From Candidatus Doudnabacteria bacterium (GTDB lineage Bacteria > Patescibacteriota > Doudnabacteria > UBA920), in NCBI GenBank assembly GCA_963837465.1, contig CAWINB010000001.1, forward strand, positions 501,646 to 565,645: a stretch of DNA of 64,000 nt, given 5' to 3'. The position numbers were made by a program, and so were the translations under genes. Under the pieces are notes generated by a model. That model saw only the letters and a list, made by a program, of their open reading frames with translations, was not told the origin of the DNA and made no database searches. Below, in pieces: positions 9,414 through 62,046 of this stretch (position 1 is its first letter; each line of letters starts with the position of its first letter).

Positions 9414-9557
9414 GCTTGCCAAAACTGGACTTCCTATGGCCTTTGCGGTACCGTGTGCCTTGGAAAAGACGAATAAAAAATTAAGCGATCCGAAGGCTCT
9501 TTGTAGCCCGGCCAGCTAATAATGGAGTTTGAAATAACGAGAAAATTGTAATATACT

Positions 9558-9752
9558 GACTTTAACAATTTAATCAATCTAAGTAGCCTAAACCCGGCAG
9601 CAATGCCGGGCATGGCGAACAGTGAAATAAACTCTATGAAAATACTGAACCCGTCGTTCAGCTACTTTTCATAGAGTCGTATACCCGAAAGGGGCTACGG
9701 ACCCGCAAGGGTCATGCTGGCGGCGGGCTTTGTGCTATCTGCCAGCAAGAAA
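9558..9752 (+). ncRNA. conserved structured RNA leader, copy A, upstream of a PH-domain gene
   Basis: Elements in order: a GNRA-capped hairpin CCCGGCA-GCAA-TGCCGGG; CATGGCG; a covarying outer stem around the conserved ACTGAACCCGTCGTTCAGC hairpin; ATACCCGAAAGGG; a GCAA-capped hairpin; then ATGCTGGCGGCGGGCTTTGTG. The same architecture recurs at 41558 and 60488 with compensatory changes. Confidence 0.5.
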
Positions 9753-9767
9753 GGATAAATATACAAT

Positions 9768-10226
9768 ATGGAACCAATGGAATTAAAAGGCCAAAATGGC
9801 ACGCTCGTTATCACTGACGCGGGTGTAACCATTAAAAAAGGTCTCAAAGGATTTTTCTTAGGAGGCGGTAAGATGGGAGACAAAACTATCCCCTACTCCT
9901 CCATCGCCGCGGTGCAATTTAAAAAGGCTGGGGCGATAGCTGGCTATATACACTTAAGTTTAGTTGGGGGTATAGACTCAAGCACCAACGTGCTGATGAT
10001 GGCTAACGATGAGAACACCGTAACTTTCCAGATATGGGGCGGTAAGAATAAGAAATTTGAGGAAGGTAAAAATATCATCGAGCAAAAGATGATGGCAGCC
10101 AAATCCGGCGGCGCCCACCACAAATCAGAAGCCGATGACCTAGAAAAGTTTGCCCAGTTGAGGGATAAAGGAGTTATTACCGAGGATGAATTTCAACAGA
10201 AGAAAAAACAGCTGCTTGGTTTATAG
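9768..10226 (+). CDS. bacterial PH-like domain protein with C-terminal SHOCT domain
   Basis: The GTLVITDAGVTIKK...YIHLSLVGG region is typical of bPH/YokE-like proteins. The C-terminal LEKFAQLRDKGVITEDEFQQKKKQLLGL is a SHOCT signature. A GAAAGGA RBS is present. Confidence 0.6.
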   Translation: MEPMELKGQNGTLVITDAGVTIKKGLKGFFLGGGKMGDKTIPYSSIAAVQFKKAGAIAGYIHLSLVGGIDSSTNVLMMANDENTVTFQIWGGKNKKFEEGKNIIEQKMMAAKSGGAHHKSEADDLEKFAQLRDKGVITEDEFQQKKKQLLGL

Positions 10227-10292
10227 CCATTAATAACTTTTAATTGGAAGGACTCGGCCTTAGGGCCGTGTTCTTCAGTTCCAAAAACCCTT

Positions 10293-11138
10293 ATGTCCAC
10301 AAAAGGCCTTACCATACTGCTGCCGGACGGCGACCCCAACGGCATTAAAATCATTGAAGTCAACGGCTGGGTTGGCAAGGCCATTATTATCCCGAGGGCT
10401 AAGCTTAAGTTCATTAAAGACCGGCCGGAAAGCAATTTGCCAGCCTTGTATTTTTTGTTCGGCGAGAATATGGACGAGACCAAGCCCAGTGTTTACATTG
10501 GGGAAACTGAACTCTGTTACCAGCGGTTAACCAACCATGAAAGTAATAAGGATTTCTGGAACTTAGCCATTATTTTTATTGGCAGTTTGGATAAGGCCGA
10601 TGTCAGATACTTAGAAAATAAAGCCGTGCAGGAAGCCCACAGCTCTGGCCGCTATCTTATGACCAACGGTAACTCCCGTAACGAGAATACCTTATCGGAG
10701 TTTAAAAAATCAGCAGCTGATAGCTATTTTGAAAGTATTAAGTTTGTAATGGCGGTACTCGGTTATACACTGTTTGAACCCATAATTACCGACACCCACC
10801 ACGCTGAAGAAATCTATTACTTAAAAGCCTCTGGCGCGGAAGCCAAAGGCAGTCTTTTGGATACAGGAGAGTTTATTGTTTTTAAGGGCTCTACCGTGCG
10901 CCTGGCTGAAGTGCCGTCCATGCAGGGCACGGGTGGCTCTAAGCTTCGGCAGCTGATGAGCCGTGAGGATGACGGTAGGCTAAAGAAGATTAACGACGAG
11001 GCCTATCAACTGACCCAAGACGTGGTTTTTACCAGCCCAAGCCTGGCTGCAGATGTTATAACCGGCAGATCCAGCAACGGCTGGATTTCGTGGAAGGATA
11101 GTCAGGGCCGGACTCTGGATGAGAATAAAAGGAAATAA
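10293..11138 (+). CDS. GIY-YIG-like nuclease N-domain with DUF4357-like C-terminal domain
   Basis: LYFLFGEN...VYIGETE...RLTNH matches the GIY-(x13)-YIG-R pattern. The C-terminal NGWISWKDSQGRTLDE is a conserved tail. The protein is nearly identical to the 61201-62046 product. Confidence 0.55.
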   Translation: MSTKGLTILLPDGDPNGIKIIEVNGWVGKAIIIPRAKLKFIKDRPESNLPALYFLFGENMDETKPSVYIGETELCYQRLTNHESNKDFWNLAIIFIGSLDKADVRYLENKAVQEAHSSGRYLMTNGNSRNENTLSEFKKSAADSYFESIKFVMAVLGYTLFEPIITDTHHAEEIYYLKASGAEAKGSLLDTGEFIVFKGSTVRLAEVPSMQGTGGSKLRQLMSREDDGRLKKINDEAYQLTQDVVFTSPSLAADVITGRSSNGWISWKDSQGRTLDENKRK

Positions 11139-11147
11139 AATAGCTTA

Positions 11148-11855
11148 CTAATTCCAAATTTTTAAACCCCATCCACTAACTTTTCCTGTTAAACTCTTTG
11201 CAAATAAAGGCCAATAAATTTTTAAGTATGCATTTTTTTCAGCTAGCTTTTCTACATCAAGATCTTTATTGCTTACACCGATCCAAATAGCACTATTTAA
11301 AGACGTTGCCACTAAGTCAGTTGCCTGTAAAAGTGAATTGGTATCGTCATTAGAAAAAATAAGCCAAGAGCAAAGCCTATTTTTATATGGATCCTTCTTA
11401 TCAGATGTAACCCAGCTTTGACTGTCATTTTGAATGTGTTTAAAAAACTTTTTTGTCAGGTTAGCCTCAGTCTTATGGTCAAGATTGTCCATAACTACCA
11501 AACCTGTTTCGTCATTTTTTTTCAAAGATAAAAAAAATCGTTCAATCAAAAAATCTAAAGCGCCGAGATAAGTATCGCTAATTTTTCTTTCCGATTTCAT
11601 ACTATACTCACCAAGGTAAACAGCGCGGGCTTCAACTTTATATTTTTTTAATACTGAAAATATTTCTTCGGTAATTTTTAATTTTTGAGTTTGATTTAAT
11701 TTATTCTTGCGCGCTGATTTTAAAGTACTTATAGTATGCCTTTCTCCAATTTTTTCCAATTCGGTTGCCGCTTTTATTAAATCGTTGGCGTCAAAAATCA
11801 ATCCGCACAATACAAAATAAGCACGGCCTCGTTGGCCATCTTTGCAAATATCCAT
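11148..11855 (-). CDS. hypothetical protein
   Basis: The start is placed at MDICKDGQRGRAYFVL. The longer track ORF runs antisense through the MTase fragment. Low GC with no recognisable motif, and it replaces the 5' half of the copy-2 MTase. Confidence 0.4.
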   Translation of the reverse strand: MDICKDGQRGRAYFVLCGLIFDANDLIKAATELEKIGERHTISTLKSARKNKLNQTQKLKITEEIFSVLKKYKVEARAVYLGEYSMKSERKISDTYLGALDFLIERFFLSLKKNDETGLVVMDNLDHKTEANLTKKFFKHIQNDSQSWVTSDKKDPYKNRLCSWLIFSNDDTNSLLQATDLVATSLNSAIWIGVSNKDLDVEKLAEKNAYLKIYWPLFAKSLTGKVSGWGLKIWN

Positions 11856-12470
11856 AAAGCGGCCAAGGATGACTTTTCCATTATTGTATACGAAAACTGG
11901 AAAAACATCCGGACAATTTGGGGCGAGATGGAAAAATACTGGAAGGTAAAAAATATGATTGTTTGGCACTTGCCCAACCGTGTGCAAGGATTTTCCGCTA
12001 AATATAAATTCTTTAACAAGCACGACATTGCCATGGTCGGCAGCGGCGACAGCGACAAAGAATACAATTTGGAGTCTGAAGAAGACGGATTGCAGAACGA
12101 ATACGACACAGCTCTTTACGGCATTTCCGGCAAACCGCAGTGGGAATCGTACGCCAAAGGTAAAAAATATTGCCCGACGGACTTTATTGAGTATGTGGCC
12201 AGTGACGAAAAAAGTTCGGGCCAGGGCGTAATTTTTGGTACCAAACCAATTGAGATTCTCATTCCCTACATTAAGGTATTAACCAAACGCGGCGATTTAA
12301 TTTTGGAACCGTTTGGCGGCAGTGGCAGTACTTTGATTGCCGCAACCAAAATGAAGCGCCGCTGCTGCATTATGGAAAAGTCGTCGGTTTATGCTGAAGT
12401 AATTATTAAGCGCTGGGAAAAGCTCACGGGCCAAAAAGCCCAGCGGATAATAGCAGGAAGGGAAACCTAA
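11832..12470 (+). pseudogene. 5'-truncated ParB-MTase (C-terminal methyltransferase half only)
   Basis: It aligns to residues ~235-450 of the 5540 and 56445 products (IVYENWKNIRTIWGEME...EPFGGSGSTLIAAT) but lacks the ParB domain and the DPPY motif. Confidence 0.6.
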
Positions 12471-12474
12471 AACT

Positions 12475-13017
12475 ATGGATGAACCCAATGACATTGTTAT
12501 GCTTCCCAACCCGGAAGGTAGTGGTAACTATTCCAGCTCCGCTGACATGAAGCAGGATAAGCAAAAAGAGTTGATGGTCGAGCAGCTCAAGAAAACGCCA
12601 ATCGTGCAGGTGGCATGCGAAAAATTAGGAATTGGCCGGAGTTCCTACTACAGGTGGCGGCAAGAGGATAAAAAATTTGAGAAAGATTGTGACGACGCGA
12701 TTAAAGAAGGTCGAAACTTGGTAAATGACGTTGCCGTATCGCAGCTGTTAAGCGCCATAAGAACCGGCAATATGACGGCAATAATGTTTTGGTTAAAACA
12801 TTTTGACGAAAACTTTAAAACCAAAATTGAAATTTCGGGATCAGTCAAGCAGGTACGTGAGGAGCTTACCGAAGAAGAGATGGCTCTTTTTCTTGAGTCC
12901 TTAAAACTTGCCGGCTTTTCCGAAAAGCAAATTAATATTAATTCTAATAAGGAGACAAACGACAATGATCAACCTAGAGAAACTTCCGTTCCTGATCGAC
13001 CCGATCAGGAAAAGTAG
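12475..13017 (+). CDS. terminase small-subunit-like HTH protein (copy 2)
   Basis: GRSSYYRWRQEDKKF HTH signature. Paralogous to the 6879 and 57785 products. Confidence 0.55.
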   Translation: MDEPNDIVMLPNPEGSGNYSSSADMKQDKQKELMVEQLKKTPIVQVACEKLGIGRSSYYRWRQEDKKFEKDCDDAIKEGRNLVNDVAVSQLLSAIRTGNMTAIMFWLKHFDENFKTKIEISGSVKQVREELTEEEMALFLESLKLAGFSEKQININSNKETNDNDQPRETSVPDRPDQEK

Positions 13018-14443
13018 GCTGCTTAGGCGCAAGTTCGCCAAGCGCAGTCACCCTATGTTTTTTCTGCTGTACTTAGCCAAATATATGACTAAGCCCACAG
13101 CAGAGTTTCAGCGTGAAATTTTCACGCTCACCGAAGACAAGAAACTGGACTTTCTTGTCTTAACCGCCTTTCGCGGTTCTGCTAAGTCCACAATCTGCAA
13201 TACCTCACTGGCTATCTGGTCAGTAGTTAGCGGCCGGGCTAACAACATTATTATTGCCAGCCAGACCAGACAGCAAGCCAGACAACATCTAGCGAATATT
13301 AAAAAGGAATTAGAAACTAATGATTTACTCCGCAATGACCTCGGTCCGTTCGAGGAAGAATCGGACGAATGGGGTGCATTCGCGATTACCTTTAAGGATT
13401 ACGATGCCCGCATTATGGCCGTTTCCACCGAACAGGCCATCCGTGGTATGCGCTACAAACAATATCGACCCGAAATAATAATATTGGATGATATTGAAGA
13501 CGTTAATTCTACCAGAACCAGAGAAGCCCGAGAGAAAATATACAACTGGTTTACTTCGGAAATTGTGCCATTGGGAACGCCGGATACCAGAATTATTGTC
13601 CTTGGTAACTTTGTTCACGAATATTCTTTAGTAGGCAGACTGATGGCGGAAATTCAAAGCGGCCAGCGACTTGGTATGTTTAAGCGTTACCCGTTAATTA
13701 ATGACGAAGGTTTGTGCATTTGGCCGGGAATGTATCCGAATGATGCGGCCATTGAAGCCTTTAGGAAAAAAGTTGGCGATGAGGCAACTTGGGAGCGGGA
13801 GTACAAACTTAATATTATAGCTGCCGGAGAAAAGCTAATTCCACTGGAATGGATTAAGTTTTACGAAGAGTTGCCTTCAAGGAAAAAATCGCGCGATTAC
13901 TCTTATACTTCTTGTGCAGTAGACTTAGCAATTGGCGAGAATGAAACCAATGACTGTACGGCTATCGTTTGCGGGCAAGTCCACCGCCCAGACGGCAACC
14001 TGAAAGTTTATATTCTAGCCAATCCCACCAACGCGCGTCTAAATTTTCCTAAAGCCATAGAAGCCATGAAAAATACCCTAAACGTTTTAGGCGAACAAGG
14101 CCGCACCAAAATGTTTATTGAAACCGTAGGTTTTCAAGAAGCCTATTACCAATATATGTTTGAAAACGGTTACAGACAAGTTGAGGGCGTTAAAGTTACA
14201 ACAGATAAACGCACCAGACTTGCGCTTACAACCAAACTGATTAAAGAGGGCGTAATCGTGTTTGCTAAAACTGGTTGCGATGAACTTATCCAGCAATTAG
14301 TTGGCTTCGGCAAAGAGCATCACGACGATTTAGCCGACGCGTTCAGCATGTTAATTATGCAAATCATGAAAGAGCATGAGGAAGGAGCTGGTTTTAGGGC
14401 TTGGCTAAAATTCTGCGAACGGAACGGCGGACCGTGGCTATAA
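12965..14443 (+). CDS. terminase large-subunit-like protein (copy 2, no C-terminal extension)
   Basis: Start placed at MINLEK by alignment to MMLENSG of copy 1. AFRGSAKST, IIILDDIED, and about 75% identity to copy 1 over the core. Confidence 0.7.
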   Translation: MINLEKLPFLIDPIRKSRLLRRKFAKRSHPMFFLLYLAKYMTKPTAEFQREIFTLTEDKKLDFLVLTAFRGSAKSTICNTSLAIWSVVSGRANNIIIASQTRQQARQHLANIKKELETNDLLRNDLGPFEEESDEWGAFAITFKDYDARIMAVSTEQAIRGMRYKQYRPEIIILDDIEDVNSTRTREAREKIYNWFTSEIVPLGTPDTRIIVLGNFVHEYSLVGRLMAEIQSGQRLGMFKRYPLINDEGLCIWPGMYPNDAAIEAFRKKVGDEATWEREYKLNIIAAGEKLIPLEWIKFYEELPSRKKSRDYSYTSCAVDLAIGENETNDCTAIVCGQVHRPDGNLKVYILANPTNARLNFPKAIEAMKNTLNVLGEQGRTKMFIETVGFQEAYYQYMFENGYRQVEGVKVTTDKRTRLALTTKLIKEGVIVFAKTGCDELIQQLVGFGKEHHDDLADAFSMLIMQIMKEHEEGAGFRAWLKFCERNGGPWL

Positions 14444-14678: not shown

Positions 14679-15284
14679 TTAGGGTTTGCTGAGCTCGGCA
14701 ACATCTTCTGGATCATTGCCGTTGAACTGGAAGTCCTGTGCCCAGCATTGGCGATGAAGTTCGGTAATGGGGCCAAATATCAGCCCGTCTTCCCGAATTA
14801 ATATCTCTATCGCCGTCTCGAGCGTGTGCCGCTCCTGCCCATACTGGTGCATAGCGGCATATTCGCGGACTGTGGGATGGCCGCCTTGACCTAAGGGCAC
14901 AGCACCGATAAGTGCCATAACCCCTCGAGCAAAAGCGCTGCGCTTGTAAGTTGATGCTCGTGGCATCCGCTCCAGCGCAATCCTATGCAGCTCTCCCCAC
15001 TGTGACGTGGGGAAAACAAACACCAGATGCTGCCACTCTCCGGTCTCCGGATCCTGACCTTCTATGTCAGTCAAGACATCGAACTTCTCAATTATCTTGA
15101 CCTCGACCAGTTCCCCGGATATAAGCCCGAAAACCTCGTGGGGATTGAATTCATCATCCCATGCCCCTTGAACGAAATATCGGGCTCCGCACTCACACTC
15201 GTAAGTGATATTATAGTCTGCCGGAATCTCCAGCTTACGCTGACAGAACTGACAGACTATTTCTGGTAAGTTCGCCCTGTCCAC
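14679..15284 (-). CDS. zinc-ribbon domain protein, hypothetical (last gene of the higher-GC cluster)
   Basis: N-terminal CQFCQRK...YECECGARY Cys4 ribbon. It shares the high GC content of the genes upstream of it. Confidence 0.45.
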   Translation of the reverse strand: MDRANLPEIVCQFCQRKLEIPADYNITYECECGARYFVQGAWDDEFNPHEVFGLISGELVEVKIIEKFDVLTDIEGQDPETGEWQHLVFVFPTSQWGELHRIALERMPRASTYKRSAFARGVMALIGAVPLGQGGHPTVREYAAMHQYGQERHTLETAIEILIREDGLIFGPITELHRQCWAQDFQFNGNDPEDVAELSKP

Positions 15285-15343
15285 TTTTATTCTTCCTTTC
15301 TTGCGCTGGTTGCGCTCCTAGGGTGAAAGGGATTGGAGATAAA

Positions 15344-17230
15344 CTACTGCGCGGCTTTGAGCGCGACAAGAGCGACAGCGGTTGGATTATTCCACGACCC
15401 GACTGTGAAGACCTCGTCACACAACTCCACCGCATACTTCGGATTTCCAGAAGCCGAAACGATGCCTACCACCTTCACATTTTTATCGTGGGCGATGGCA
15501 TACACCGACGGTGCCGGAAAACCACTATCCAAGAAATCCCCGAACACCATTATGGTAGTATTCGGCAGGGCCTGGCGGATAGCCAGTTCAAGCCCTCGAG
15601 CATAGGAAGTACCAAAACCCGGCTGCAGCATAAGAATGCCGTCAATAACGACATCTACATCTGACTCCGGAGTCGGAACAACCACAGCTGGATGATCAGC
15701 GAACACCGTCAACCCAAAGGTTGCGCCCTTGGGTCCGTAGTAAAGAGCAGTGGCTTGTGCCGCAGCCATTGCTGACTGCATCCTGCCCTCGTGCCCCATA
15801 GAACCGCTCGTGTCAAACACGAACAGCAGGTTTGGAGCGTCGGTGCTCACGCGCTTTTGGCGAATTTCGGCGAGGTCGTCAACCGCGCCGCCACTTGCCA
15901 AGGCTTCCTCCATTGTCCGAAGCTCGTCTAACGGAGCTTCAAAGTGGAGACCGCGAAGCAAGTCTACCTGCTCGCCAGCACGGCTCATTGTCTGCGCCCC
16001 GTCTTCCACCTCGTCAAATTGTGAGATAGCTTTAAGAGCGCTTAAATGAGATATGCCTTTGAGCAATCGGTATTCAGGTCCGCCGCGAACTCGATGCTGG
16101 GGAGGGATGGTTGTCCACCGCTCCAACAACTCGATTCGCTTTTCGCCGCTAAGTCCGCGCAAGAGTGGCATCATCTTCACCAACTCCTGTGGGATATCCG
16201 CCGAAATACTTAGCTCGGGCATTCCGTCGCCCTTGCCACCTAAGGCACCGCCGCTAGTCGCCGCACCCGTTTCCGGACTCGGAGAATCTAACTGCACTGC
16301 CTGTTTGATGACTTCGGGTTTCTCGGATTGCACTATTGCCTTTTGACCTCGGACCTTAGCTTCAAAGCTGCCGTCCAGAGCCTTCAGGTCAAACCGTGCC
16401 TGCCCTTGGCTGTTGGCGAGTTCCTGCGAAATTTCACCTGCGGTCTTAATTCCATCCGCAGTCAGAAATTCCTTTGTTGGATCAGAACCAAGTAACTTGG
16501 CTAAGCTCGTGGTGTTAACCACGGCTTTGCCTTGTCCCGGCTCTTTCGCAGGATTTTGCTTTTGCCCTTGCGAGGAAGATTGAGACGAGGTTGAACCTTC
16601 AGCCTGATTTTGGTCTTGATCAGCTTGCGCCGAACTTTGACCTTTACCAGACTTAGGCTGTCTTCTCGACTCCCGGCGAAGACTGGCACAAAAAGATTCT
16701 GTGCTAAAATCAGTATCGCCATTTTCTCCCGAACCACTTTGCGTCGATGGTTTTCCAGGCTTGCCCGACTGTGAAGTGGGTTTGCCTTGGGAATCAGACT
16801 GGGACTGTTTGTCGCCCCCACCTTTCTCGGATGAAGGCTGTGGCTGTCCCGAATCTGAAATCTGACTCTCTACTTCTGCTTGCGCATAGGCTGAATCAGA
16901 CTTTTCATCTTTTTGGTCGCTGCTGTTTGCCTCCGAAGGTTCGCCGGAATTTTCCTGCTGGTTTTCGCCTTCTCCTTGTTCAGGATTAGTTTCATCCGCA
17001 GGATTATCTTCCGATTCCTCTGAAGACTCTCCGTCCGGGCTTTGTGAGCCTGGGGGTGAATCATCATCCGGCGTTGCTCCTCCGGAGGCTGCTAAGGGCG
17101 GTTGGATGTTCCTCCGAACACCTCGTGAAGGATCTTCGTGATCCAAGTGTCGGCAGTTTCTCCGTTCATCGTAACGTCGGGCGTAATTTCCACCCGCCCA
17201 CGATACACACGGCAACCGACGCTGATGCAA
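15344..17230 (-). CDS. von Willebrand factor A (vWA) domain protein with long acidic/Ser/Gln-rich low-complexity N-region
   Basis: MIDAS motif LLFVFDTSGSMG. The N-terminal 138 nt overlap the upstream AAA+ gene, and the true start is uncertain. Confidence 0.7.
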   Translation of the reverse strand: MHQRRLPCVSWAGGNYARRYDERRNCRHLDHEDPSRGVRRNIQPPLAASGGATPDDDSPPGSQSPDGESSEESEDNPADETNPEQGEGENQQENSGEPSEANSSDQKDEKSDSAYAQAEVESQISDSGQPQPSSEKGGGDKQSQSDSQGKPTSQSGKPGKPSTQSGSGENGDTDFSTESFCASLRRESRRQPKSGKGQSSAQADQDQNQAEGSTSSQSSSQGQKQNPAKEPGQGKAVVNTTSLAKLLGSDPTKEFLTADGIKTAGEISQELANSQGQARFDLKALDGSFEAKVRGQKAIVQSEKPEVIKQAVQLDSPSPETGAATSGGALGGKGDGMPELSISADIPQELVKMMPLLRGLSGEKRIELLERWTTIPPQHRVRGGPEYRLLKGISHLSALKAISQFDEVEDGAQTMSRAGEQVDLLRGLHFEAPLDELRTMEEALASGGAVDDLAEIRQKRVSTDAPNLLFVFDTSGSMGHEGRMQSAMAAAQATALYYGPKGATFGLTVFADHPAVVVPTPESDVDVVIDGILMLQPGFGTSYARGLELAIRQALPNTTIMVFGDFLDSGFPAPSVYAIAHDKNVKVVGIVSASGNPKYAVELCDEVFTVGSWNNPTAVALVALKAAQ

Positions 17231-39398: not shown

Positions 39399-39399
39399 A

Positions 39400-51533: not shown

Positions 51534-51534
51534 G

Positions 51535-52902: not shown

Positions 52903-52914
52903 TTATTTTAGTTT

Positions 52915-55733: not shown

Positions 55734-56444
55734 CGAGTGGCGGTTGGGAGACCGTCTTTATGTCGCTGAGGATGAAGCCATATCCGAAATTAGATTTCGG
55801 GGTTAGGCGATGGTGAAATGTGCTTATATTATATATAAATTTTGCGGGTTAGGCAACGAGATTGGTTGTATTAAAAATTACCAGAATTGGTAGTGCTTCC
55901 GTTGGACGACTGTGCCAGTGTTACGGACTTAAGTAGTATTTTAACATTCAATAGTGATACCTAAGCGGCGCCAAAAAAATTTAGCAATTATTGACTGTGG
56001 AATTTAAACTCTGGCTATGCCCACGATTCCTTAAATGCCCTGTAGGTCTTAGTGTTCAACCTTATTGCCCTAATCCTGTGAATTGCCAGTTTGAGGTATC
56101 ATCTGGCCTAAGGCAACGGGCTTACTTCAGGTATCATGTGGGATGGCACAAGTCTTAAGTTTGACAGTCAAATTAAAAAGAGTTACTATATTTATATACA
56201 GCCATCGTGAACTAGAAAGTGTATGGTTTAGGTTTTCCAAAAGAGTCCCGGAGTCGAAACCTCTTCGGGAAAATTCGGCCATATTGCTCTAAAACGGAAA
56301 ATAATAAAAAATAAAATATCCAATTAATATTTAAAGTTTGATGGATTAATAAAACTTAATAAGACCATCCAATCAGAATGGACGGCAGTTTTTTGCTATG
56401 CGGAAAACTAAAACAATCAAGTATCAAAATTAAAGTTATAACCC

Positions 56445-57788
56445 ATGAAAGAAAAATTATTAAGCGAGCTTAAGTTGAAAGTTGAGTATGTGTCAGTGGC
56501 TGCGCTGAAACCCAGCGAGTATAATCCACGCAAATTCTCCAAAGAGCAGTTTGAGCAGCTAAAAACTAGCATTAAAGAGCACTCCTTGGTAGAGCCTTTG
56601 GTGGCGAACTCCGCGCCGAATAGAAAGAACATTTTAATAGGAGGACACGGTAGGTTAAAAGCCGCCAAGGAATTGGGGCTTAAAACCGTGCCGGTGGTTT
56701 ACGTCAGCATTCCCGATATCGAGACCGAGAAGGATCTAAACGTGAGACTGAATAAGGCGGTCGGAGAATTTGATCTGGAGTTGCTGTTAAAGAATTTCAG
56801 CGAGGAATTTTTGTCCGGAGTTGGATTTTCCAGTGAGGAATTGGATAAAATTTTTGCTGTTGAGGAGATACCGGAATTATTTGATCTGGAAAAAGAACTT
56901 AAGAAACTCAATATTCAAAAGGTCAGCGTTAAACAAGGTGACGTCTACGAGATTGCCGGTTGTCGGGTTATGAACGGTAACAGTACCGTTGAAGCCGATA
57001 TGATAAAACTCATGGACGGCCAGAGGGCGGATATGTGTTTGACGGACCCACCTTATTTACTAGACTACCTACACGGCAAAAAGAAAAAAGACGCTACTAA
57101 AGGTTTTGGCCTTAAGCGTGATCGTACCTATCTAGGGACTACGGAACTGCCGGAAAATTTTACCGACCTGTGGATGGCTAGTATCGCCAAAATCCAAAAG
57201 CCGGATTTCTCTATTATAGTTTATGAGAATCCAAAGAACCTGCGAACCATCTGGAACGCTTTAGAAAAGTATTGGAAATACCGTAACACTATAATTTGGC
57301 ATCTGCCAAATCGGGTACAGGGCTTCTCCGCTAAGTATAAGTTTTTCAACAAATGGGACTTCGCCATGGTCGGTACCTCCGGTCAGGTGTCCTTAAACGA
57401 CGAGCCGGAAAAGGATGCGCTATTGCAAGAGGAGTATGAGTCCGCTTTATTTGCCACCTCCGGCAAGCCGCATTGGGAGTCTTATGCCAAGGGCAAAAAG
57501 TATTGCCCGACTGACTTTATTGAGTATAAAGCGTCGGATAAAAAATCATCGGGCCAAGGAATAATCTTTGGCACTAAGCCAGTGGAGATTCTGATTCCAT
57601 ATATTAAGGTGCTGACTAGGCGTGATGAATTGATAGTGGAACCGTTCGGGGGGTCGGGGTCAACAGCGGTAGCAGCCATAAAAATGAAGCGCCGTTGTTA
57701 CCTGATGGAAAAATCTAACGTCTACACGGAAGTCATATTGAACAGACTTTCGAAGTTAACCGGGCAAAAGCCAAGGAGGGTGGCATGA
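56445..57788 (+). CDS. ParB-like nuclease domain fused to DNA methyltransferase (copy 3)
   Basis: ParB motif ILIGGHGRLKAAKELG, catalytic CLTDPPYLLDYL, and EPFGGSGSTAVAA. Confidence 0.85.
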   Translation: MKEKLLSELKLKVEYVSVAALKPSEYNPRKFSKEQFEQLKTSIKEHSLVEPLVANSAPNRKNILIGGHGRLKAAKELGLKTVPVVYVSIPDIETEKDLNVRLNKAVGEFDLELLLKNFSEEFLSGVGFSSEELDKIFAVEEIPELFDLEKELKKLNIQKVSVKQGDVYEIAGCRVMNGNSTVEADMIKLMDGQRADMCLTDPPYLLDYLHGKKKKDATKGFGLKRDRTYLGTTELPENFTDLWMASIAKIQKPDFSIIVYENPKNLRTIWNALEKYWKYRNTIIWHLPNRVQGFSAKYKFFNKWDFAMVGTSGQVSLNDEPEKDALLQEEYESALFATSGKPHWESYAKGKKYCPTDFIEYKASDKKSSGQGIIFGTKPVEILIPYIKVLTRRDELIVEPFGGSGSTAVAAIKMKRRCYLMEKSNVYTEVILNRLSKLTGQKPRRVA

Positions 57789-58225
57789 GCCGGAAAAATT
57801 ACCAACAGGCAAAACAAAAAGCGGCCGTTATCGAACAGCTAAAAAAATTTCCGATTGTTCAGTTAGCCGTTCAGAAGGCCGGAGTATCCAGACCCAGTTA
57901 TTACCAATGGCGGAAACAGGATGCGGAATTCGCTAAAACCGCGGATGAGGCCATGGCCGAAGGCATCCTGTTTATTAACGACATCGCCGAAGGTAATATG
58001 ATATCTCTGATAAACGAAAAGGACATGCGAAGCATTCGTTTTTGGCTCACGCACCGTCATCCCGTCTATGCCGCAAAACTGCAGCTCGAAGGGAAGTTGG
58101 AGTTATCGGACGAGGCTTTAAGTAGCGAGCAGCAGGAAATCGTAGACAGGGCCTTGGGATTGCTCGCCGGGGATAAAAGCCAACTCGGCGAACAAAAAGG
58201 AGGCAACCATGAACCTCACGCCTGA
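57785..58225 (+). CDS. terminase small-subunit-like HTH protein (copy 3)
   Basis: GVSRPSYYQWRKQDAEF HTH signature. Confidence 0.55.
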   Translation: MSRKNYQQAKQKAAVIEQLKKFPIVQLAVQKAGVSRPSYYQWRKQDAEFAKTADEAMAEGILFINDIAEGNMISLINEKDMRSIRFWLTHRHPVYAAKLQLEGKLELSDEALSSEQQEIVDRALGLLAGDKSQLGEQKGGNHEPHA

Positions 58226-59738
58226 CATCACTGAGCGGATGGGTAAAGATGCCGGTATCCGCCGCGCCATAACAAAAAAGAGCCATGAAGCTTTCTTTGC
58301 CTTCTATCTGCCGCATTACTTAGAGTACCAAAGCGCATTGTTCCATCACGAGCTGTTTGCCGCTACCGAAGACAGGACTGCTAAACTTTTGGTCGTCCAA
58401 GGTTTTAGGAACAGCGGCAAATCAACAATATTATCTTTGTCTTTTCCCCTTTGGCTCGCCATAAGCGGGCAGGCGCAGGAAATCATCATCATTTGCAAAA
58501 ACCAGATGTTGGCCAGACATGCGATGAAAAATATTCAGGCAGAATTAGAAGAGAATGAACAGCTAACCAAGGATTTTTATCCCTTTGATTTTAGGGAGGA
58601 TGCCTCGGACGCTTACATCGTAAGCTTAAAACGCTACCGCGCCGAAATCGTGGCCGTTTCCCGCGAGCAAAGCGTGCGCGGCTTAAAACATCGGCAGTAT
58701 AGGCCACAGGCTATTATTATTGACGATCCGGATGACATCGGGTCGGTAAAAACTTTGGAAAGCCGGGAGAATACCTGGCAATGGATGATGCGGGATATTG
58801 TGCCATTGGGGGATAAAAATACCAGAATTGTGGTTATCGGTTCGCCGCTTCATGGCGATTCGCTGATTATGCGCCTACACGATAAGATCGAAAGCGGACA
58901 GATGCGGGGACTGTCCATGCGCATTCCCATTCTTGACCAAAACGGCAAACCCGCTTGGCCTGCCAAATTTCCGACTCAGAAGGAAATCCAAGAGGAGAAA
59001 ATGAAGATGGATGAGATCAGTTGGAACAGGGAAATGATGCTGTTGCTTACTCCTGAGCTCGGACAGCTGGTCACCTTAGAGGACATAGTTAAGTATAATA
59101 ACCTACCTCCCCGTGCGAGTACTTGCGGCTATATTGCCACCTGGTCGGGAGTGGACTTCGCCATCGGCCAGAAGCCGGGCAGCGATTATACGGCTATCGT
59201 GACAATACAAATACATGTCGTTAATGGAAAGCTGAAAATTTACGTCCTGCCGAACCCCGTTAACCGCCACTTGGATAATTATGGCAATATCGCCGCCATG
59301 AAGCAGGTAATCGACAATGCCAAACAAACAGGCCACAGCAAAATGTTTATGGAGGCCAACTTATTTCAAGTTTCGTTTTACCAGCAGATGATCGGCGCTG
59401 GCTATAACCAGATAGCGCCAGTTACGGTCAGTGGTGATAAGCTAACAAGGTTACAACCGACAGCTATGATGATCAAGGATGGTCGGCTACTATTTCCCAA
59501 AGAGGGCTGCCGTGACCTCATTTTCCAACTGGTAGATTTTGGCTCGGCACGCAAAGACGATTTGGCGGATGCCTTGAGCTTGGTCGTCAATGAAGCTATT
59601 AACGAACATAATAAAAATCTCTCGCTGTACGGTTACTTGGATTGGGTAGAATCTAACGGCGGACCGTATATGGACATTGACGGCAGCAAACCGACCAGGA
59701 GATTTCAAAGCCTCATCCCGGAAGGCCAAGAAGAATGA
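58209..59738 (+). CDS. terminase large-subunit-like protein (copy 3, canonical Walker A)
   Basis: GFRNSGKST (GxxxxGKST), Walker B IIIDDPDD, and nuclease-region similarity to copies 1 and 2. Confidence 0.7.
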   Translation: MNLTPDITERMGKDAGIRRAITKKSHEAFFAFYLPHYLEYQSALFHHELFAATEDRTAKLLVVQGFRNSGKSTILSLSFPLWLAISGQAQEIIIICKNQMLARHAMKNIQAELEENEQLTKDFYPFDFREDASDAYIVSLKRYRAEIVAVSREQSVRGLKHRQYRPQAIIIDDPDDIGSVKTLESRENTWQWMMRDIVPLGDKNTRIVVIGSPLHGDSLIMRLHDKIESGQMRGLSMRIPILDQNGKPAWPAKFPTQKEIQEEKMKMDEISWNREMMLLLTPELGQLVTLEDIVKYNNLPPRASTCGYIATWSGVDFAIGQKPGSDYTAIVTIQIHVVNGKLKIYVLPNPVNRHLDNYGNIAAMKQVIDNAKQTGHSKMFMEANLFQVSFYQQMIGAGYNQIAPVTVSGDKLTRLQPTAMMIKDGRLLFPKEGCRDLIFQLVDFGSARKDDLADALSLVVNEAINEHNKNLSLYGYLDWVESNGGPYMDIDGSKPTRRFQSLIPEGQEE

Positions 59739-59770
59739 ATGGCACTTAAAAACACCGCTTTGCGGTTTTT

Positions 59771-60307
59771 TTAAGTTGGCTTCTTTACAGACAGTAGCGC
59801 CCTATTCATAAATTCGTATTTGGTTTCTAGATATTGGCGCAAAAGGTCGTAATCATCAAACAGTATTTTTTGATAATCTTTTTTTAATTTTTTGTCGGCC
59901 TTTATGACCTCAAAAAAATTTTTATAATCGTGAGGCTCCTGGGCGCGGTGGTGGGCTAAATATACCTCGATAATGCGGCCGTTAGGCCACGGTAAGCCAT
60001 CCTGCCAGATAACGACTTCCGGAAGTTGCTGTATAGGCGGCCTAGGGAAGAACTTGTTGAATTGAGGGATATATTTAGGAAAGTCTTTGGGGTCGCCAAG
60101 GACATACAGTTTTGGCGCTTCTTTGGCCAACAGCCCCATTCCCCATTCGTCAATCCACCAAATTTTAAGTTCCGGGAAAAAGCGAGAAATATTGGAACGT
60201 ATGGAATCAATCTCGTTTAGCAAATTCAGCGACACGATTCCGCGTTTGGGCAGCGGCTGGTCTGCCGGTGCTTCCTCTATATGATCTTTTTGCCATTGGG
60301 TAAGCAT
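59771..60307 (-). CDS. stand-alone homologue of the TerL-copy-1 C-terminal extension domain, inverted
   Basis: APKLYVLGDPKDFPKYIP...RIIEVYLAHH...KYEFMNRAL aligns to APRLYILMDLKYFPKYLP...HVIELYLVGK...RKFEFMNKTL at the end of the 7341-9413 product. Confidence 0.5.
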   Translation of the reverse strand: MLTQWQKDHIEEAPADQPLPKRGIVSLNLLNEIDSIRSNISRFFPELKIWWIDEWGMGLLAKEAPKLYVLGDPKDFPKYIPQFNKFFPRPPIQQLPEVVIWQDGLPWPNGRIIEVYLAHHRAQEPHDYKNFFEVIKADKKLKKDYQKILFDDYDLLRQYLETKYEFMNRALLSVKKPT

Positions 60308-60487
60308 GAAATTGTATTTAAAACTTACAATTTATTATAGCTTTTTAGGGGGATTTTATAAAGCTGGACTTACTTAAGGGTTTGCGGTACCGTGTGCCTT
60401 GGAAAACTATTAAATAAAACCAAGGGTGTTTAAGTCTGCCCAGCTAAAATGGAGATTGAAATAAGCGGAAAATGATAGTATAATAAC

Positions 60488-60680
60488 TTTAACAATTTAA
60501 TCAAAGTAGCCTAAACCCGGCACAATGCCGGGCATGGCGAATAACCAAAACCTATAGAAAGTACTGAACCCGTCGTTCAGCTATCTTTCTATAGGTCATA
60601 CCCGAAAGGGTGTGGGCTCGCAAGAGCCATGCTGGCGGCGGGCTTTGTGTTGTCCGGATGCCAGCAGAAAGGTTATAAAC
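60488..60680 (+). ncRNA. conserved structured RNA leader, copy C
   Basis: A TATAAT box at 60479 precedes it. The architecture matches copy A, with outer stem CCTATAGAAAG/CTTTCTATAGG and distal hairpin GCTCGCAAGAGC. Confidence 0.5.
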
Positions 60681-60682
60681 TT

Positions 60683-61114
60683 ATGACTGAAGATTTGGTG
60701 CAAGCTATTGGCAGTAGAGGTAGAAAATTATTAGCAGAAAATATTGGATCAGATGAAAAAGTTTTGGTTCAACTGCAAGGCGCTTTTGGACAAGTTTTAG
60801 TAGTGACAGATAAACGGTTCTACATTATCAAATGGGGTTTTATGACCGGCAGTACTTTTGGCGGCCGATGCCTGGCGTTTGAGTATAAAAATATTAGTGG
60901 CGTGAAAATTACCAAGAATTTTGCCACGGGGTTATTTGAAATTGTCACCCCGGGCAACCAAGATACCCAAAAAAGCTACTGGGGATCCAATAATCGCAAT
61001 AATGCTAATAAAGCTGATAATATAGTGGTATTTCGCAGAAAGAGCTTTGGCCCGTTCCAGCAAGCCGCAAACCTGGCCAGGGATTTAATTAACCAAGCTC
61101 ATAATAAAAATTAA
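60683..61114 (+). CDS. bacterial PH-like domain protein (divergent paralogue of the 9768 product)
   Basis: Start placed at MTEDL after GAAAGG. The track ORF begins 54 nt earlier, inside the conserved RNA sequence. The LVVTDKRFYIIKWG...GLFEIVTPG region is PH-like. Confidence 0.5.
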   Translation: MTEDLVQAIGSRGRKLLAENIGSDEKVLVQLQGAFGQVLVVTDKRFYIIKWGFMTGSTFGGRCLAFEYKNISGVKITKNFATGLFEIVTPGNQDTQKSYWGSNNRNNANKADNIVVFRRKSFGPFQQAANLARDLINQAHNKN

Positions 61115-61200
61115 CCACGCAGTTTTACCTTAGTTTAAAAACAATATTAATTCAGAAGAACCCGGCCTTCGAGCCGTGTTCTTCAGTTCCCAAAACCCTT

Positions 61201-62046
61201 ATGTCCACAAAAGGCCTTACCATACTATTGCCAGACGGTGATCCCAACGGCATTAAAATTATTGAAGTTAACGGTTGGGTTGGCAAGGCCATTATTATCC
61301 CGAGGGCCAAGCTTAAATTTATTAAAGATCGACCGGAAAGTAATCTGCCAGCACTGTATTTTTTGTTTGGAGAGAATATGGATGAGACCAAACCCAGCGT
61401 TTACATTGGGGAAACCGAAACCTGTTACCAGAGATTGACTAATCATGAAAGCAATAAGGATTTTTGGAATTTAGCCATTATTTTCATTGGCAGTTTGGAT
61501 AAGGCAGATGTCAGGTATCTAGAAAACAAAGCCGTGGAGGAAGCCCAAAGTTCCGGCCGCTACCTGATGACCAATGGTAATTCCCGTAATGAAAATACCT
61601 TATCCGAGTTTAAAAAATCAGCGGCAGACAGTTATTTTGAAAGTATTAAGTTTGTCATGGCAGTGCTGGGTTACACTTTGTTTGAGCCGGTCTTTGCAGA
61701 TACCCATACAGCCGACGAAGTATATTATTTAAAAGCCTCTGGCGCGGAAGCCAAAGGCAGTCTTTTGGATACAGGAGAGTTTATTGTATTTAAGGGCTCT
61801 ACCGTGCGCTTAGCCGAAGTGCCTTCTATGCAAGGCACAGGCGGCTCAAAGCTTAGGCAGCTAATGAGCCGGGATGATGATGGCAGGCTTAAAAAAGTTA
61901 GCGACGAATCCTATCAGTTAACCCAAGATGTAGTCTTTACCAGCCCAAGTCTGGCTGCGGACGTGGTTACTGGCAGATCCAGCAACGGCTGGATATCATG
62001 GAAAGATAGCCAGGGGCGAACACTGGATGAGAATAAGAGGAAGTAG
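61201..62046 (+). CDS. GIY-YIG-like nuclease N-domain with DUF4357-like C-terminal domain (copy 2)
   Basis: Nearly identical to the 10293-11138 product over the full 281-aa length. Confidence 0.55.
   Translation: MSTKGLTILLPDGDPNGIKIIEVNGWVGKAIIIPRAKLKFIKDRPESNLPALYFLFGENMDETKPSVYIGETETCYQRLTNHESNKDFWNLAIIFIGSLDKADVRYLENKAVEEAQSSGRYLMTNGNSRNENTLSEFKKSAADSYFESIKFVMAVLGYTLFEPVFADTHTADEVYYLKASGAEAKGSLLDTGEFIVFKGSTVRLAEVPSMQGTGGSKLRQLMSRDDDGRLKKVSDESYQLTQDVVFTSPSLAADVVTGRSSNGWISWKDSQGRTLDENKRK

Follow-up and report, generated by a model that had tools for sequence, protein, structure and literature searches.

Diverged LOOT-GIY-YIG units follow phage terminase modules on both sides of a patchwork of defence and mobile genes in Candidatus Doudnabacteria

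Gene content of the terminase modules

The window (the complete 64,000-nt stretch analysed here) carries a module with the order ParB-methylase, small terminase, large terminase, LOOT, variable gene, and GIY-YIG nuclease (PDC-S14), twice in full and once truncated. The 1.7-kb repeat which a sequence-only reading had noticed at both ends of a 49-kb region is the 3' part of this larger module. In total, there are three terminase modules and four copies of LOOT.

A regulatory pair (4364-5258, + strand; Pfam) is encoded upstream of module 1: an HTH_XRE protein (4364-4729) and an ImmA/IrrE-like M78 peptidase (4737-5258). Module 1 itself consists of the ParB_N plus N6_N4 DNA methyltransferase MT1 (5540-6892, +; Pfam, PHROG 498), a small-terminase-like HTH protein (6879-7328, +; PF13022, with a weak match to a small terminase PHROG), and the 690-aa large terminase TerL1 (7341-9413, +; PHROG 38, E = 1e-78). 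The C-terminal extension of TerL1 (about 170 aa, 8886-9413) is homologous to a 178-aa gene on the opposite strand (59771-60307, -; 28% identity, E = 1e-17). In module 2, the methyltransferase is truncated to the equivalent of aa 244-450 (11832-12470, +), its 5' half being absent from the window. A small-terminase-like HTH protein (12475-13017, +) and a 511-aa large terminase (12908-14443, +; PHROG 38, E = 9e-81; 58% aa identity to TerL1) follow, and neither LOOT nor GIY-YIG comes after the latter. Module 3 comprises a ParB_N plus N6_N4 methyltransferase (56445-57788, +; Pfam; 56% aa identity to MT1), a small-terminase-like HTH protein (57785-58225, +), and the 509-aa TerL3 (58209-59738, +; PHROG 38, E = 4e-65; 40% aa identity to TerL1). 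The terminases also match terminases from PDB, and Walker A, Walker B, and the first nuclease Asp are invariant. No structural proteins were matched among the window ORFs, and the terminase modules are devoid of portal and capsid genes.

The LOOT leader, the slot genes, and the GIY-YIG nuclease

The RNA leader proposed from the sequence proved to be real and corresponds to the Rfam family LOOT (RF03000). Four window copies exceed the Rfam gathering score of 46.4 bits: A (9585-9713, +; 63.2 bits), B (41569-41684, +; 59.9 bits), C (60508-60628, +; 70.2 bits), and D (55679-55809, -; 49.5 bits), an orphan which is divergent from module 3 and has no ORF downstream. The fold has multiple hairpins with conserved GNRA-type tetraloops. 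Copies A and C are preceded by a conserved intergenic region (9415-9584, +, and 60354-60507, +, respectively) with the same best-scoring promoter at equivalent positions (TTGAAA-17-TATACT, 9529-9557, +; TTGAAA-17-TATAAT, 60456-60484, +), and -10 boxes precede copies B and D. In copy A, a 26-mer with the hairpin GCCTTGG/CCGAAGG comes before the promoter. This 26-mer, TTTGCGGTACCGTGTGCCTTGGAAAA, is an exact match between copies A and C. Given that the predicted -35 box follows only after about 88 nt, the leader transcript probably does not include the 26-mer. An extra 3' hairpin of the leader, P6, is followed by the SD-like box GAAAGG (A: 9715-9747, +, -19.3 kcal/mol, z = -3.6; C: 60630-60666, +, -22.5 kcal/mol). 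Each of the seven copies examined has P6 (-18.6 to -23.3 kcal/mol), and the related locus L009 shows a compensatory change in it.

Slot gene A codes for a PH-like DUF4429 plus SHOCT protein of 152 aa (9768-10226, +; Pfam), whose family has 173 homologues, the named ones being mostly from CPR. Slot gene C codes for a PH-fold protein with a weak bPH_3 match (60629-61114, +). Its true start is likely at 60683 (MTEDLV...), as the ORF from 60629 overlaps the conserved P6 leader with its first 18 codons. As had been stated, the two are only distantly related (hhalign probability 98%, 21% identity) and SHOCT occurs in copy A. A conserved hairpin is located upstream of the GIY-YIG start (A: 12-13 bp, 19 nt upstream, 10247-10276, +, -20.8 kcal/mol; C: 61155-61184, +, -16.5 kcal/mol). 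The GIY-YIG/DUF4357 (RAMA) nucleases (A: 10293-11138, +, Pfam, PADLOC PDC-S14 with E = 2e-87; C: 61201-62046, +, Pfam, PDC-S14 family) have 281 aa each and share 95% aa identity. PDC-S14 is a candidate defence family of PADLOC.

Cargo between and beyond the copies

Variable cargo starts directly 3' of each GIY-YIG gene, in other genomes too. After copy A, this is a DUF3800 gene (11148-11855, -), the listed ORF of which extends to 12023, with the first ca. 57 aa being antisense of the module 2 methyltransferase fragment. A high-GC block (14679-28122, -) carries a VWA and MoxR-like AAA pair, a HamB-like DEAD helicase (18955-21081), a TrmB regulator (on the + strand), and a 1000-aa protein. Large serine recombinase 1 (28211-29644, +; Pfam; 67% nt identity to the L009 recombinase) separates it from a low-GC defence block (29858-40815, -) with a 1224-aa protein, HEC-05/GmrSD (35415-37118), and the res (37131-39398) and mod (39400-40815) genes of a Type III R-M system. 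LOOT copy B leads genes (41752-43797, +; Pfam) for a bPH_2 protein (41752-42213), an Ltp lipoprotein (42255-43013), and a HARE-HTH protein (42940-43797). Large serine recombinase 2 (46496-48277, +; Pfam) and a diversity-generating retroelement (DGR; 48515-52902, +) follow, the latter with a target gene containing VR (51048-51159), TR (51412-51523), bAvd (51535-51903, -), and RT (51847-52902). A convergent Cas4-like plus RNase_H_2 (DUF2779-type) gene (62051-63517, -) begins 5 nt after the copy C nuclease; this DUF2779 neighbour type recurs in L002-L004, L006, and L007. Defence matches in the cargo (PADLOC) are Type III R-M, HEC-05, and the HamB-like helicase.

It is correct that most of the defence and mobile genes are located between copies A and C. 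Nevertheless, these copies do not mark the ends of a single 49-kb unit: between them there are one further terminase module, which is truncated, LOOT copies B and D, two serine recombinases, a DGR, and blocks of very different GC content (36-56%). The interval is a mosaic of defence and mobile genes, not one insert with a recently duplicated sequence at either end. Both serine recombinases may be parts of other inserts.

Divergence of the repeat copies

When the window was compared to itself using BLASTN, both pairs of flanks were recovered: 9421-9757 matches 60360-60675 on the leader side (78.1% nt identity over 342 nt, E = 4e-63), and 10230-11137 matches 61135-62045 on the GIY-YIG side (85.3% over 911 nt, E = 0); the similar segments as a whole are 9415-9757 with 60354-60675 (78%) and 10230-11138 with 61135-62046 (85%). 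No match was obtained between 9757-10230 and 60675-61135; the slot gene is at background nt identity. In a profile based on 60-nt windows of a global alignment of both copies, identity is 35-37% ahead of 9415/60354, with sharp edges, 60-80% in promoter and leader, 28-40% in the slot gene, and 80-98% in the GIY-YIG gene, and it drops to 37-47% directly 3' of the GIY-YIG stop codon. The flanks are, as expected from the sequence-only reading, much more similar than the interior, and the observation thus withstands the refuting comparison that had been proposed with it. Its term "near-identical" is adequate for the protein (95% aa identity of the nuclease) and for short stretches (the longest exact runs are 59, 35, 32, and 26 nt), whereas the DNA as a whole is only 78-85% identical.

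Independent contigs of short reads (run ERR10755945) cover window positions 1-10313 and 50647-61221 at 99.96-99.98%. Both end 21 nt inside the GIY-YIG gene, at the onset of the 35-nt identical stretch. Because copies A and C are found in independent contigs, each in its own context, they are not an artefact of a single assembly.

Related loci

The module recurs in loci L001-L011 with different slot genes and cargo. The contig L011, which comes from another metagenome, is collinear with module 1 up to the GIY-YIG stop codon, where homology stops. The MT1 homologues share 94% aa identity (dN/dS 0.036). dS between module 1 and L011 differs by gene (GIY-YIG 0.58, methyltransferase 1.08, PH 1.85, TerL saturated). 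In L009, the GmrSD gene is 87% identical to 35406-37223 of the window. The identity matrices of leader and nuclease are incongruent: LOOT from L010 is ca. 56% identical to the others, its GIY-YIG gene 86-87%. By these comparisons, the history of the modules is mosaic.

The suspicion that the gene between the conserved flanks is replaceable is supported, since relatives keep LOOT and GIY-YIG with five kinds of slot gene. Among close relatives (GIY-YIG genes 80-90% identical), these are PH-SHOCT (window copy A and L011), its distant PH homologue (window copy C), DUF4352 (L010), and a 92-aa ORF (L009); more distant relatives have a Zn-ribbon/OB-fold gene. With dN/dS 0.06 between slot gene A and that of L011, the gap between slots A and C is attributed to replacement by an old allele and not to fast drift.

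Module genes are under purifying selection (dN/dS 0.04-0.06). Truncation directly after TerL is found in at least seven independent loci with TerL proteins that are only 35-58% identical, and is thus old and stable. In the closest homologues on viral contigs (L301 and L302), TerL is likewise followed by cargo (Type I R-M and ThsB-TIR). The next closest (L303-L306) belong to normal phages, in which TerL is directly followed by genes for portal-MuF, protease, and capsid. None of the modules could be linked to an integrase, a replication gene, or an att site from which element boundaries might be defined.

A survey of 233 unique LOOT loci from CPR genomes and metagenomes revealed that LOOT heads transcription units: the nearest downstream gene is co-oriented in 171 of 185 cases, and the upstream gene is divergent in 120 of 192. 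The genes on either side are hypervariable (114 clusters among 178 and 132 among 183), and even copies with 85-95% identity differ entirely in what adjoins them to the left and to the right, their neighbours being unrelated. In CPR overall, LOOT rarely adjoins TerL (7/117) or GIY-YIG (2/131). The linkage is therefore lineage-specific, and the function of LOOT need not relate to the module. We infer that LOOT acts in cis on downstream genes. Against this, a T-run 30-50 nt downstream in about half of the copies elsewhere is compatible with a stand-alone sRNA, which is its classification in Rfam, and copy D lacks a downstream gene.

Interpretation

The similarity of the flanks, far above that of the interior, and the 95% identical nucleases might suggest a recent segmental duplication in this genome, or ongoing gene conversion, with a replaced or fast-diverged PH gene; exact runs of up to 59 nt could seed recombination. 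We consider this very improbable. The nuclease genes differ by a dS of 1.13, which is near saturation, and a dN/dS of 0.023 accounts for the similarity of the proteins. The dS of copy A to L011 (0.58) is lower than that to copy C, and copy C is closer to L011 (dS 0.83) and L010 (dS 1.08) than to copy A. The adjacent terminase and methylase proteins are merely 40-56% identical, and purifying selection on the slot gene within its type makes fast drift unlikely. Judged from these comparisons, repeats A and C are paralogous, old, and diverged copies of one conserved transcription unit, and of the options raised earlier, two insertions of related elements fits best, not recombination between the copies. 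The view of LOOT as an attC-like DNA recombination site with integron-type cassettes is the least credible one. A conserved structured element is indeed followed by variable co-oriented genes, and even closely similar copies have unrelated neighbours, but no integron integrase occurs among the window ORFs, the copies are 5-32 kb apart (start-to-start 31,984, 14,110, and 4,829 nt) rather than at every gene boundary, each has its own promoter, the upstream gene is usually divergent, unlike in cassette arrays, and tetraloops and fold indicate an RNA.

Two further scenarios are unlikely but deserve more weight. If the modules were remnants of three ordinary prophages which lost their structural genes, with LOOT, slot gene, and GIY-YIG as a phage moron, the ParB-methyltransferase-TerS-TerL order shared with real phages (L303-L306), the prophage-typical Ltp lipoprotein, ImmR/ImmA-like pair, and serine recombinases, and the viral assignment of L301, L302, and L059 by IMG/VR would be accounted for. 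Random decay, however, is not expected to spare exactly these three genes repeatedly, with one old and stable truncation point, intact TerL catalytic motifs, and purifying selection. Slightly less probable still is spread of the unit by the nuclease as a free-standing homing endonuclease, which would cut related elements devoid of it, with repair copying the gene and its neighbours and resulting in mosaic flanks and slot replacement. GIY-YIG is a classical homing-endonuclease fold (e.g., T4 Seg proteins and I-TevI), the gene is far more similar between elements than the terminase genes, and mosaic breakpoints cluster around it. On the other hand, its length is near-constant under very strong purifying selection (dN/dS 0.02), its family is flagged for defence-island enrichment (PDC-S14) and is widespread outside the module, adjoining R-M systems, and the C-terminal DUF4357/RAMA domain is typical of restriction-related proteins.

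We are highly confident about the module structure and its recurrence elsewhere, copy divergence, purifying selection, the variability of slot and cargo, and the mosaic history. As an overall explanation, for which our confidence is distinctly lower though we favour it, paralogous diverged units would reside on several related phage-derived, satellite-like islands that accreted side by side. Each unit consists of its own sigma-70-type promoter, a LOOT 5' leader with P6 hairpin and SD-like box that presumably acts in cis, a small exchangeable gene, the conserved hairpin, and the strongly constrained GIY-YIG/DUF4357 nuclease. In this lineage, probably Patescibacteria/CPR, the unit comes immediately behind a phage packaging module without structural genes (ParB-methyltransferase, small and large terminase), presumably the first part of a phage morphogenesis operon that breaks off at the place of the portal gene. 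The variable defence cargo starts directly 3' of the GIY-YIG gene or TerL. Mosaic patterns suggest that the elements of a population swap slot gene and cargo when homologous recombination takes place in their conserved flanks (leader, GIY-YIG gene, terminase module); serine-recombinase insertions would be a second route of exchange. That orphan TerS/TerL packages or mobilises adjacent DNA with phage help is a tentative part of this explanation and rather doubtful. Alternatively, the methyltransferase-TerS-TerL module could serve in interference or defence, or it could be the end of a prophage that decays slowly and still looks constrained.

Comparison with known systems

The gene order of L303-L306, with portal-MuF, protease, and capsid after TerL, is also that of phage FP_Mushu. 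Hotspots have been described for P2/P4 elements (PMC9122126). The putative role of orphan TerS/TerL would resemble packaging by satellites or in lateral transduction.

The repeat pair and the age of its copies

Comparison of the window with itself (BLASTN-type) revealed two collinear matches at an offset of ~50.9 kb, so that the repeats (copies A and C) which the sequence-only reading had placed on both sides of the ~49 kb interval are real. The leader-side match covers 9421-9757 and 60360-60675 (78% identity over 342 nt, E 4e-63), the GIY-YIG-side match 10230-11137 and 61135-62045 (85% over 911 nt, E 0). The exchangeable small gene located between the two matches, referred to here as slot gene (PH_A and PH_C), has no nucleotide match between the copies in this self-comparison. 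A global alignment profiled in 60-nt steps shows background identity (35-37%) before 9415/60354, 60-80% across the intergenic region and the RNA leader, 28-40% in the slot gene, and 80-98% in the 281-codon GIY-YIG gene, with background reached again a few bases past the stop codon. The flanks are thus more alike than the interior, with sharp edges. Their description as near-identical is appropriate for the GIY-YIG proteins (95% identity) and for the longest exact runs (59, 35, 32, and 26 nt) but not for the DNA overall.

An independent short-read assembly (run ERR10755945) contains two contigs which match window positions 1-10313 and 50647-61221 with 99.96-99.98% identity, which indicates that copies A and C each exist in their own context. 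Both contigs stop 21 nt inside the repeated GIY-YIG gene, at the onset of the 35-nt identical run, and the repeat is the cause of these assembly breaks. The invariant 26-mer quoted in the sequence-only reading (9442-9467 and 60381-60406) is ~88 nt upstream of the -35 box and thus probably outside the LOOT transcript; it provides the 5' arm for a hairpin (GCCTTGG ... CCAAGGC/CCGAAGG).

The GIY-YIG genes of the two copies have diverged with a dS of 1.13 at a dN/dS of 0.023, and their similarity thus represents constraint acting on an old divergence. Each copy has a closer relative elsewhere: the gene of copy A is closer to that on metagenome contig L011 (dS 0.58) than to copy C, and the gene of copy C is closer to those on L011 (dS 0.83) and on the Candidatus Doudnabacteria contig L010 (1.08) than to copy A. 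Recombination or gene conversion between the copies, which had been one of the suggested origins, is not supported by these values. A recent intragenomic duplication was likewise rejected, since copies A and C are neither mutual closest relatives nor low in dS. Near-identity at the protein level may thus reflect constraint instead of recent duplication. The other suggestion, two insertions of related elements, proved broadly right, with the copies being old, diverged paralogues. Recombination between them could in principle delete 50.9 kb and should be rare at 85% identity; no sign of it was seen.

In Pfam, the 281-aa protein matches DUF4357/RAMA and, weakly, GIY-YIG; it has no sequence match in the PDB. 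DUF4357 is associated with GIY-YIG and T5orf172 domains (PMC4619093). Over nearly its full length (residues 3-279) the protein matches the PADLOC HMM for PDC-S14 (E 2.3e-87), a candidate single-gene defence family with the same GIY-YIG and DUF4357/RAMA domains. It differs from most relatives, for which such a context was not seen, in being encoded by the second gene of an RNA-led operon behind a terminase module.

A conserved operon with replaceable genes

The PH genes of the two copies had been considered only distantly related, and this is corroborated at the profile level. PH_A carries DUF4429 and SHOCT domains and PH_C has a weak bPH_3 match (Pfam). They show no similarity by BLASTP, and the alignment of their homologue profiles has a probability of 98% (E 1e-13, 21% identity). 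The AlphaFold model of PH_C (pLDDT 82) matches bacterial PH-domain structures (3hsa, 3dcx). PH_A and its homologue from L011 share 79% protein identity at a dN/dS of 0.06, which represents purifying selection within one slot type. The 21% identity between PH_A and PH_C thus reflects replacement by an old allele, not fast drift. Between the slot gene and the GIY-YIG gene is a conserved 12-13-bp hairpin, 19 nt 5' of the ATG and devoid of a U-tract.

The source contig is 699,532 bp long, and the nearest named relatives are Patescibacteria. Contigs with a GIY-YIG protein that is 70-98% identical (L001-L011) share the order methylase, small HTH protein, large terminase (TerL, 512-681 aa), RNA leader (LOOT, see below), small gene, and GIY-YIG gene. 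The slot gene codes for a PH-SHOCT protein in L011, a DUF4352 protein in L010, a 92-aa ORF in L009, and a Zn-ribbon/OB-fold protein in L001 and L003-L008. The gene 3' of the GIY-YIG stop codon is usually convergent at a distance of 3-15 nt and varies as well: DUF3800 after copy A, a DUF2779-type gene after copy C, a 79-aa ORF followed by DUF2779 and Type ISP R-M genes in L001-L008, Trypsin/GmrSD/HNH/AAA genes in L009, and HEPN-AbiV and PIN-TPR genes in L011. The latter contig is collinear with the module preceding copy A from the methylase to the GIY-YIG stop codon, and homology stops exactly there. The operon is thus conserved, and both its first gene and the stretch 3' of the nuclease gene are replaceable.

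Judged by sequence divergence, gene histories are mosaic. Relative to L011, dS is 0.58 for the GIY-YIG gene, 1.08 for the methylase, 1.85 for the PH gene, and saturated for TerL (66% amino acid identity). The LOOT of L010 is only ~56% identical to the others, although this contig resembles copy A closely in the GIY-YIG gene (86-87%) and in the upstream region (80%); LOOT and slot gene of L010 were exchanged as one. A GmrSD/HEC-05 gene is shared between L009 (11787-13604) and the window (35406-37223) with 87% nucleotide identity and is at a different position relative to the terminase module, which indicates that cargo genes move between elements.

Terminase modules without virion genes

Upstream of copies A and C are genes for a protein with ParB_N and N6_N4 methyltransferase domains, a small HTH protein with similarity to small terminases (TerS), and a large terminase (modules 1 and 3, respectively). 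Protein identity between the two modules is 56% for the methylase, 36% for the HTH protein, and 40% for TerL. The latter matches PHROG 38 (E 1e-65 to 1e-81) and Terminase_6C, its profile matches terminase chains from the PDB, and K71/T73 and D172/D173 (Walker A and Walker B) as well as D316 (the first nuclease aspartate) are invariant. By profile match, Walker motifs, and a predicted RNase-H-like nuclease domain, the protein is identified as TerL. Module 2 (11832-14443) is truncated: the methylase is cut to its 3' half (11832-12470, equivalent to aa 244-450), the 5' half being absent from the window, and the unit of LOOT, slot gene, and GIY-YIG gene is missing. The first ~57 codons of the "DUF3800" ORF (to 12023) are the antisense of this methylase fragment.

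A ~170-aa domain at the C-terminus of TerL from module 1 (8886-9413, plus strand) corresponds to a separate gene on the opposite strand in module 3 (59771-60307, minus strand; 28% identity, E 1e-17), so that a local inversion is implied. Neither the extension nor the 178-aa protein has a match in Pfam or the PDB. In L010, an IS element (DDE_Tnp_1) separates this domain from TerL. Directly upstream of module 1 is an ImmR/ImmA-like pair (XRE HTH and M78 peptidase, 4364-5258), regulators which are typical for mobile elements.

No portal, capsid, or tail genes were detected among the ORFs of the window (Pfam, PHROGs). An ordinary prophage was rejected because no structural gene is matched beside the terminase, while the viral controls (IMG/VR contigs L303-L306 and the cultured phage FP_Mushu) do have such genes. 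The two closest IMG/VR homologues of TerL (L301 and L302, 37-38% identity) have the same order of methylase, TerS, and TerL, lack LOOT, and continue with Type I R-M and ThsB-TIR genes. The next-closest ones (L303-L306, 33-35%) are ordinary phages with the order ParB-methylase, TerS, TerL, portal-MuF, prohead protease, and capsid, and the packaging genes of FP_Mushu are similarly ordered. The window modules thus share gene order and gene families with this tailed-phage packaging operon up to TerL (PHROG 38) but have no portal, protease, and capsid genes; TerL is instead followed by LOOT, slot gene, and GIY-YIG gene or by defence cargo. This comparison indicates that the module is the first part of a phage packaging operon which breaks off exactly after TerL. 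No fewer than seven independent loci have kept it as an orphan, and defence or accessory genes take the place of the portal gene there. The orphan module is under constraint (relative to L011, the methylase has a dN/dS of 0.036 and the HTH protein one of 0.058).

The LOOT leader

The RNA leader belongs to LOOT (Rfam RF03000), which has four covariance-model matches in the window: LOOT A (9585-9713, plus strand, 63.2 bits), LOOT B (41569-41684, plus strand, 59.9 bits), LOOT C (60508-60628, plus strand, 70.2 bits), and LOOT D (55679-55809, minus strand, 49.5 bits). Each spans positions 1-121 of the full 121-position model and exceeds the curated gathering score of 46.4 bits. The motif was first listed in a survey (Weinberg et al. 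2017, PMC5737381), whose main text does not discuss it. Our literature search found text on LOOT solely in this survey and in the Rfam paper.

The copies have the same multi-hairpin fold and GNRA-type loops as the Rfam family. They differ in having an additional 3' hairpin (P6) and in their setting: Rfam types LOOT as an sRNA gene, whereas here and in 233 loci analysed it behaves as a promoter-proximal 5' leader of hypervariable genes. The best sigma-70-type matches of their regions are at equivalent positions before LOOT A (TTGAAA-17-TATACT, 9529-9557) and LOOT C (TTGAAA-17-TATAAT, 60456-60484), and TATAAT boxes are found ~20 nt upstream of LOOT B and D. P6 is directly 3' of the Rfam match in every copy examined (-18.6 to -23.3 kcal/mol) and shows a compensatory G-to-A/C-to-U change in L009. 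In most copies it precedes a GAAAGG-type box and the next gene's start codon, so that the slot gene of copy C probably starts at 60683, not at 60629. LOOT D is an orphan that has a -10 box of its own and, on the 3' side, a strong hairpin; it is convergent with the transglutaminase/VWA gene.

A three-block LOOT pattern was found at no fewer than 118 genome loci and 120 metagenome loci or more, with 233 unique contexts among the matches listed; the genome loci listed are nearly all from Patescibacteria MAGs. TerL is encoded upstream in 7 of 117 and GIY-YIG downstream in 2 of 131 of the loci listed, and the linkage in the window is thus lineage-specific. LOOT as a terminase-associated RNA per se was rejected because the loci listed show no general link to TerL or GIY-YIG. 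PH-type slot families account for 1 of the 178 LOOT-led genes elsewhere among the matches listed, and are thus a local feature. For the same set of listed matches, the nearest downstream gene is co-oriented in 171 of 185 cases (92%) and the nearest upstream gene divergent in 120 of 192. Genes on both sides are highly diverse in the matches listed (114 clusters for 178 downstream genes, 132 clusters for 183 upstream genes), and LOOT pairs with 85-95% identity have homologous neighbours, on either side, in only ~15%. Downstream products from the listed loci have a hydrophobic N-terminus more frequently (53%) than all genes in LOOT loci (24%), and their Pfam families are very mixed. Only a handful of the 114 LOOT-led gene clusters listed match PADLOC families, so that LOOT is not a leader specific to defence genes. 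LOOT typically begins a transcription unit in hypervariable genome regions.

LOOT may be a trans-acting sRNA, in line with its Rfam type, and two observations agree with this: LOOT D has no downstream ORF of 50 aa or more, and elsewhere a T-run, 30-50 nt 3' of the motif, is present in about half of the copies. The context statistics, on the other hand, favour a cis-acting leader, which is the most economical reading. A role of LOOT as an integron cassette site was rejected, as no tyrosine recombinase was found in the window and the copies, which are spaced by 5-32 kb, have individual promoters.

On viral contigs, the first LOOT pattern (17 bases) occurs at 51 loci. Only one of these, on the IMG/VR contig L059, is a full LOOT, so that contigs classified as viral do not typically carry LOOT. 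About 20 IMG/VR contigs (L017, L018, L030, L031, L043, L044, L047, L062, and others) carry a ~75-nt element which shares the first hairpin of LOOT (GCCTAAACC...GGCATGGC) and lacks the remainder. It scored 23-28 bits with model R1, which has 18 base pairs only, as MAFFT misaligned the central hairpin, and which served only as a screen. This element may be a different RNA with a LOOT-like 5' module.

The interval between the copies

The interval is composite. It comprises DUF3800, the truncated module 2, a high-GC block (50-56%; VWA/MoxR genes, a HamB-like helicase, a TrmB regulator), a low-GC block (36-42%; an unknown 1224-aa protein, HEC-05/GmrSD, a Type III R-M system), the LOOT-B operon (bPH_2, Ltp, HARE-HTH), a diversity-generating retroelement (DGR), the transglutaminase/VWA gene, and LOOT D. 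Two large serine recombinases are encoded, one between the high-GC and low-GC blocks and the other between the LOOT-B operon and the DGR; a further one is 4.9 kb after the module in L009. Gene content thus agrees with the claim that most defence and mobile genes of the window are between the repeats, which is so because several islands adjoin. That the repeats delimit an accessory hotspot is acceptable in the sense of two related elements but not of a single insert bounded by repeats, the islands being arranged side by side.

Within 18955-21823, the DEAD-box helicase matches Hachiman HamB models (E 1e-23), and the unannotated 259-aa ORF beside it could be the HamA partner. The DGR (48515-52902) is complete: its target is an 885-aa AAA_5 protein (VR 51048-51159), followed by TR (51412-51523), bAvd (51535-51903, minus strand), and a reverse transcriptase (RVT_1, 51847-52902). 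Thirteen of the 14 TR-VR mismatches fall on TR adenines. Two adjacent non-coding repeats of ~140-150 nt (43872-44024 and 44073-44212, 72-80% identical) are located between the HARE-HTH gene and a 298-aa ORF.

Possible function and relation to known systems

The repeats as such are nothing unusual, being paralogous modules from the backbone of a defence-island family. Of more interest are the context of LOOT and the recurrent orphan terminase module. An orphan Rfam family gains a concrete context, as a promoter-proximal leader before hypervariable accessory genes in CPR bacteria, and a selectively maintained terminase module devoid of virion genes heads defence cargo. We hold with moderate confidence that LOOT regulates downstream genes in cis, and likewise that genes are exchanged by homologous recombination in the conserved anchors together with recombinase-mediated insertion. 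Held with low confidence is a further role of the module, in which it would confer the specificity of packaging and act as the motor for the capsids of a helper phage.

It is conceivable, though rather improbable, that the orphan ParB-methylase/TerS/TerL module and the LOOT operon define an undescribed class of satellite-like mobile defence islands in CPR/Patescibacteria, with helper capsids, unidirectional cargo packaging, and LOOT as a cis leader. Such islands would bring their own complete terminase and borrow the capsids of helper phages. Packaging would proceed unidirectionally from the module into the adjacent cargo, and defence genes would be spread and shuffled. LOOT would be a cis regulatory leader, possibly responsive to a ligand or to infection, which switches on diverse accessory genes. 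If the module packages DNA, this would be a route of defence-gene exchange in an uncultivated episymbiotic phylum with poorly known mobile elements. Even if it does not, the region remains a defence hotspot that is well documented and has conserved anchors. In our literature search, no text was found that describes defence islands with an orphan TerS/TerL in CPR.

Classical PICIs are not known to have a large terminase; they carry a small one or a redirecting factor. PICI/SaPI satellites and the lateral transduction of defence islands (PMC12829572) resemble the window in having packaging genes without structural genes, accessory or defence cargo downstream of these, and related elements side by side. 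No integrase, primase, or AlpA core was identified beside the window modules. In P2-like prophages and P4-like satellites (PMC9122126), conserved backbone genes bracket sites where unrelated defence systems interchange, and the equivalents in the window are the slot between LOOT and GIY-YIG gene and the region 3' of the GIY-YIG gene. The window differs in having no P2/P4 genes, a probable CPR host, and a backbone which consists of the orphan terminase module, the RNA leader, and the PDC-S14 nuclease. With unrelated genes at the same position in related loci, the region is, as in these systems, a defence-island hotspot with conserved flanks.
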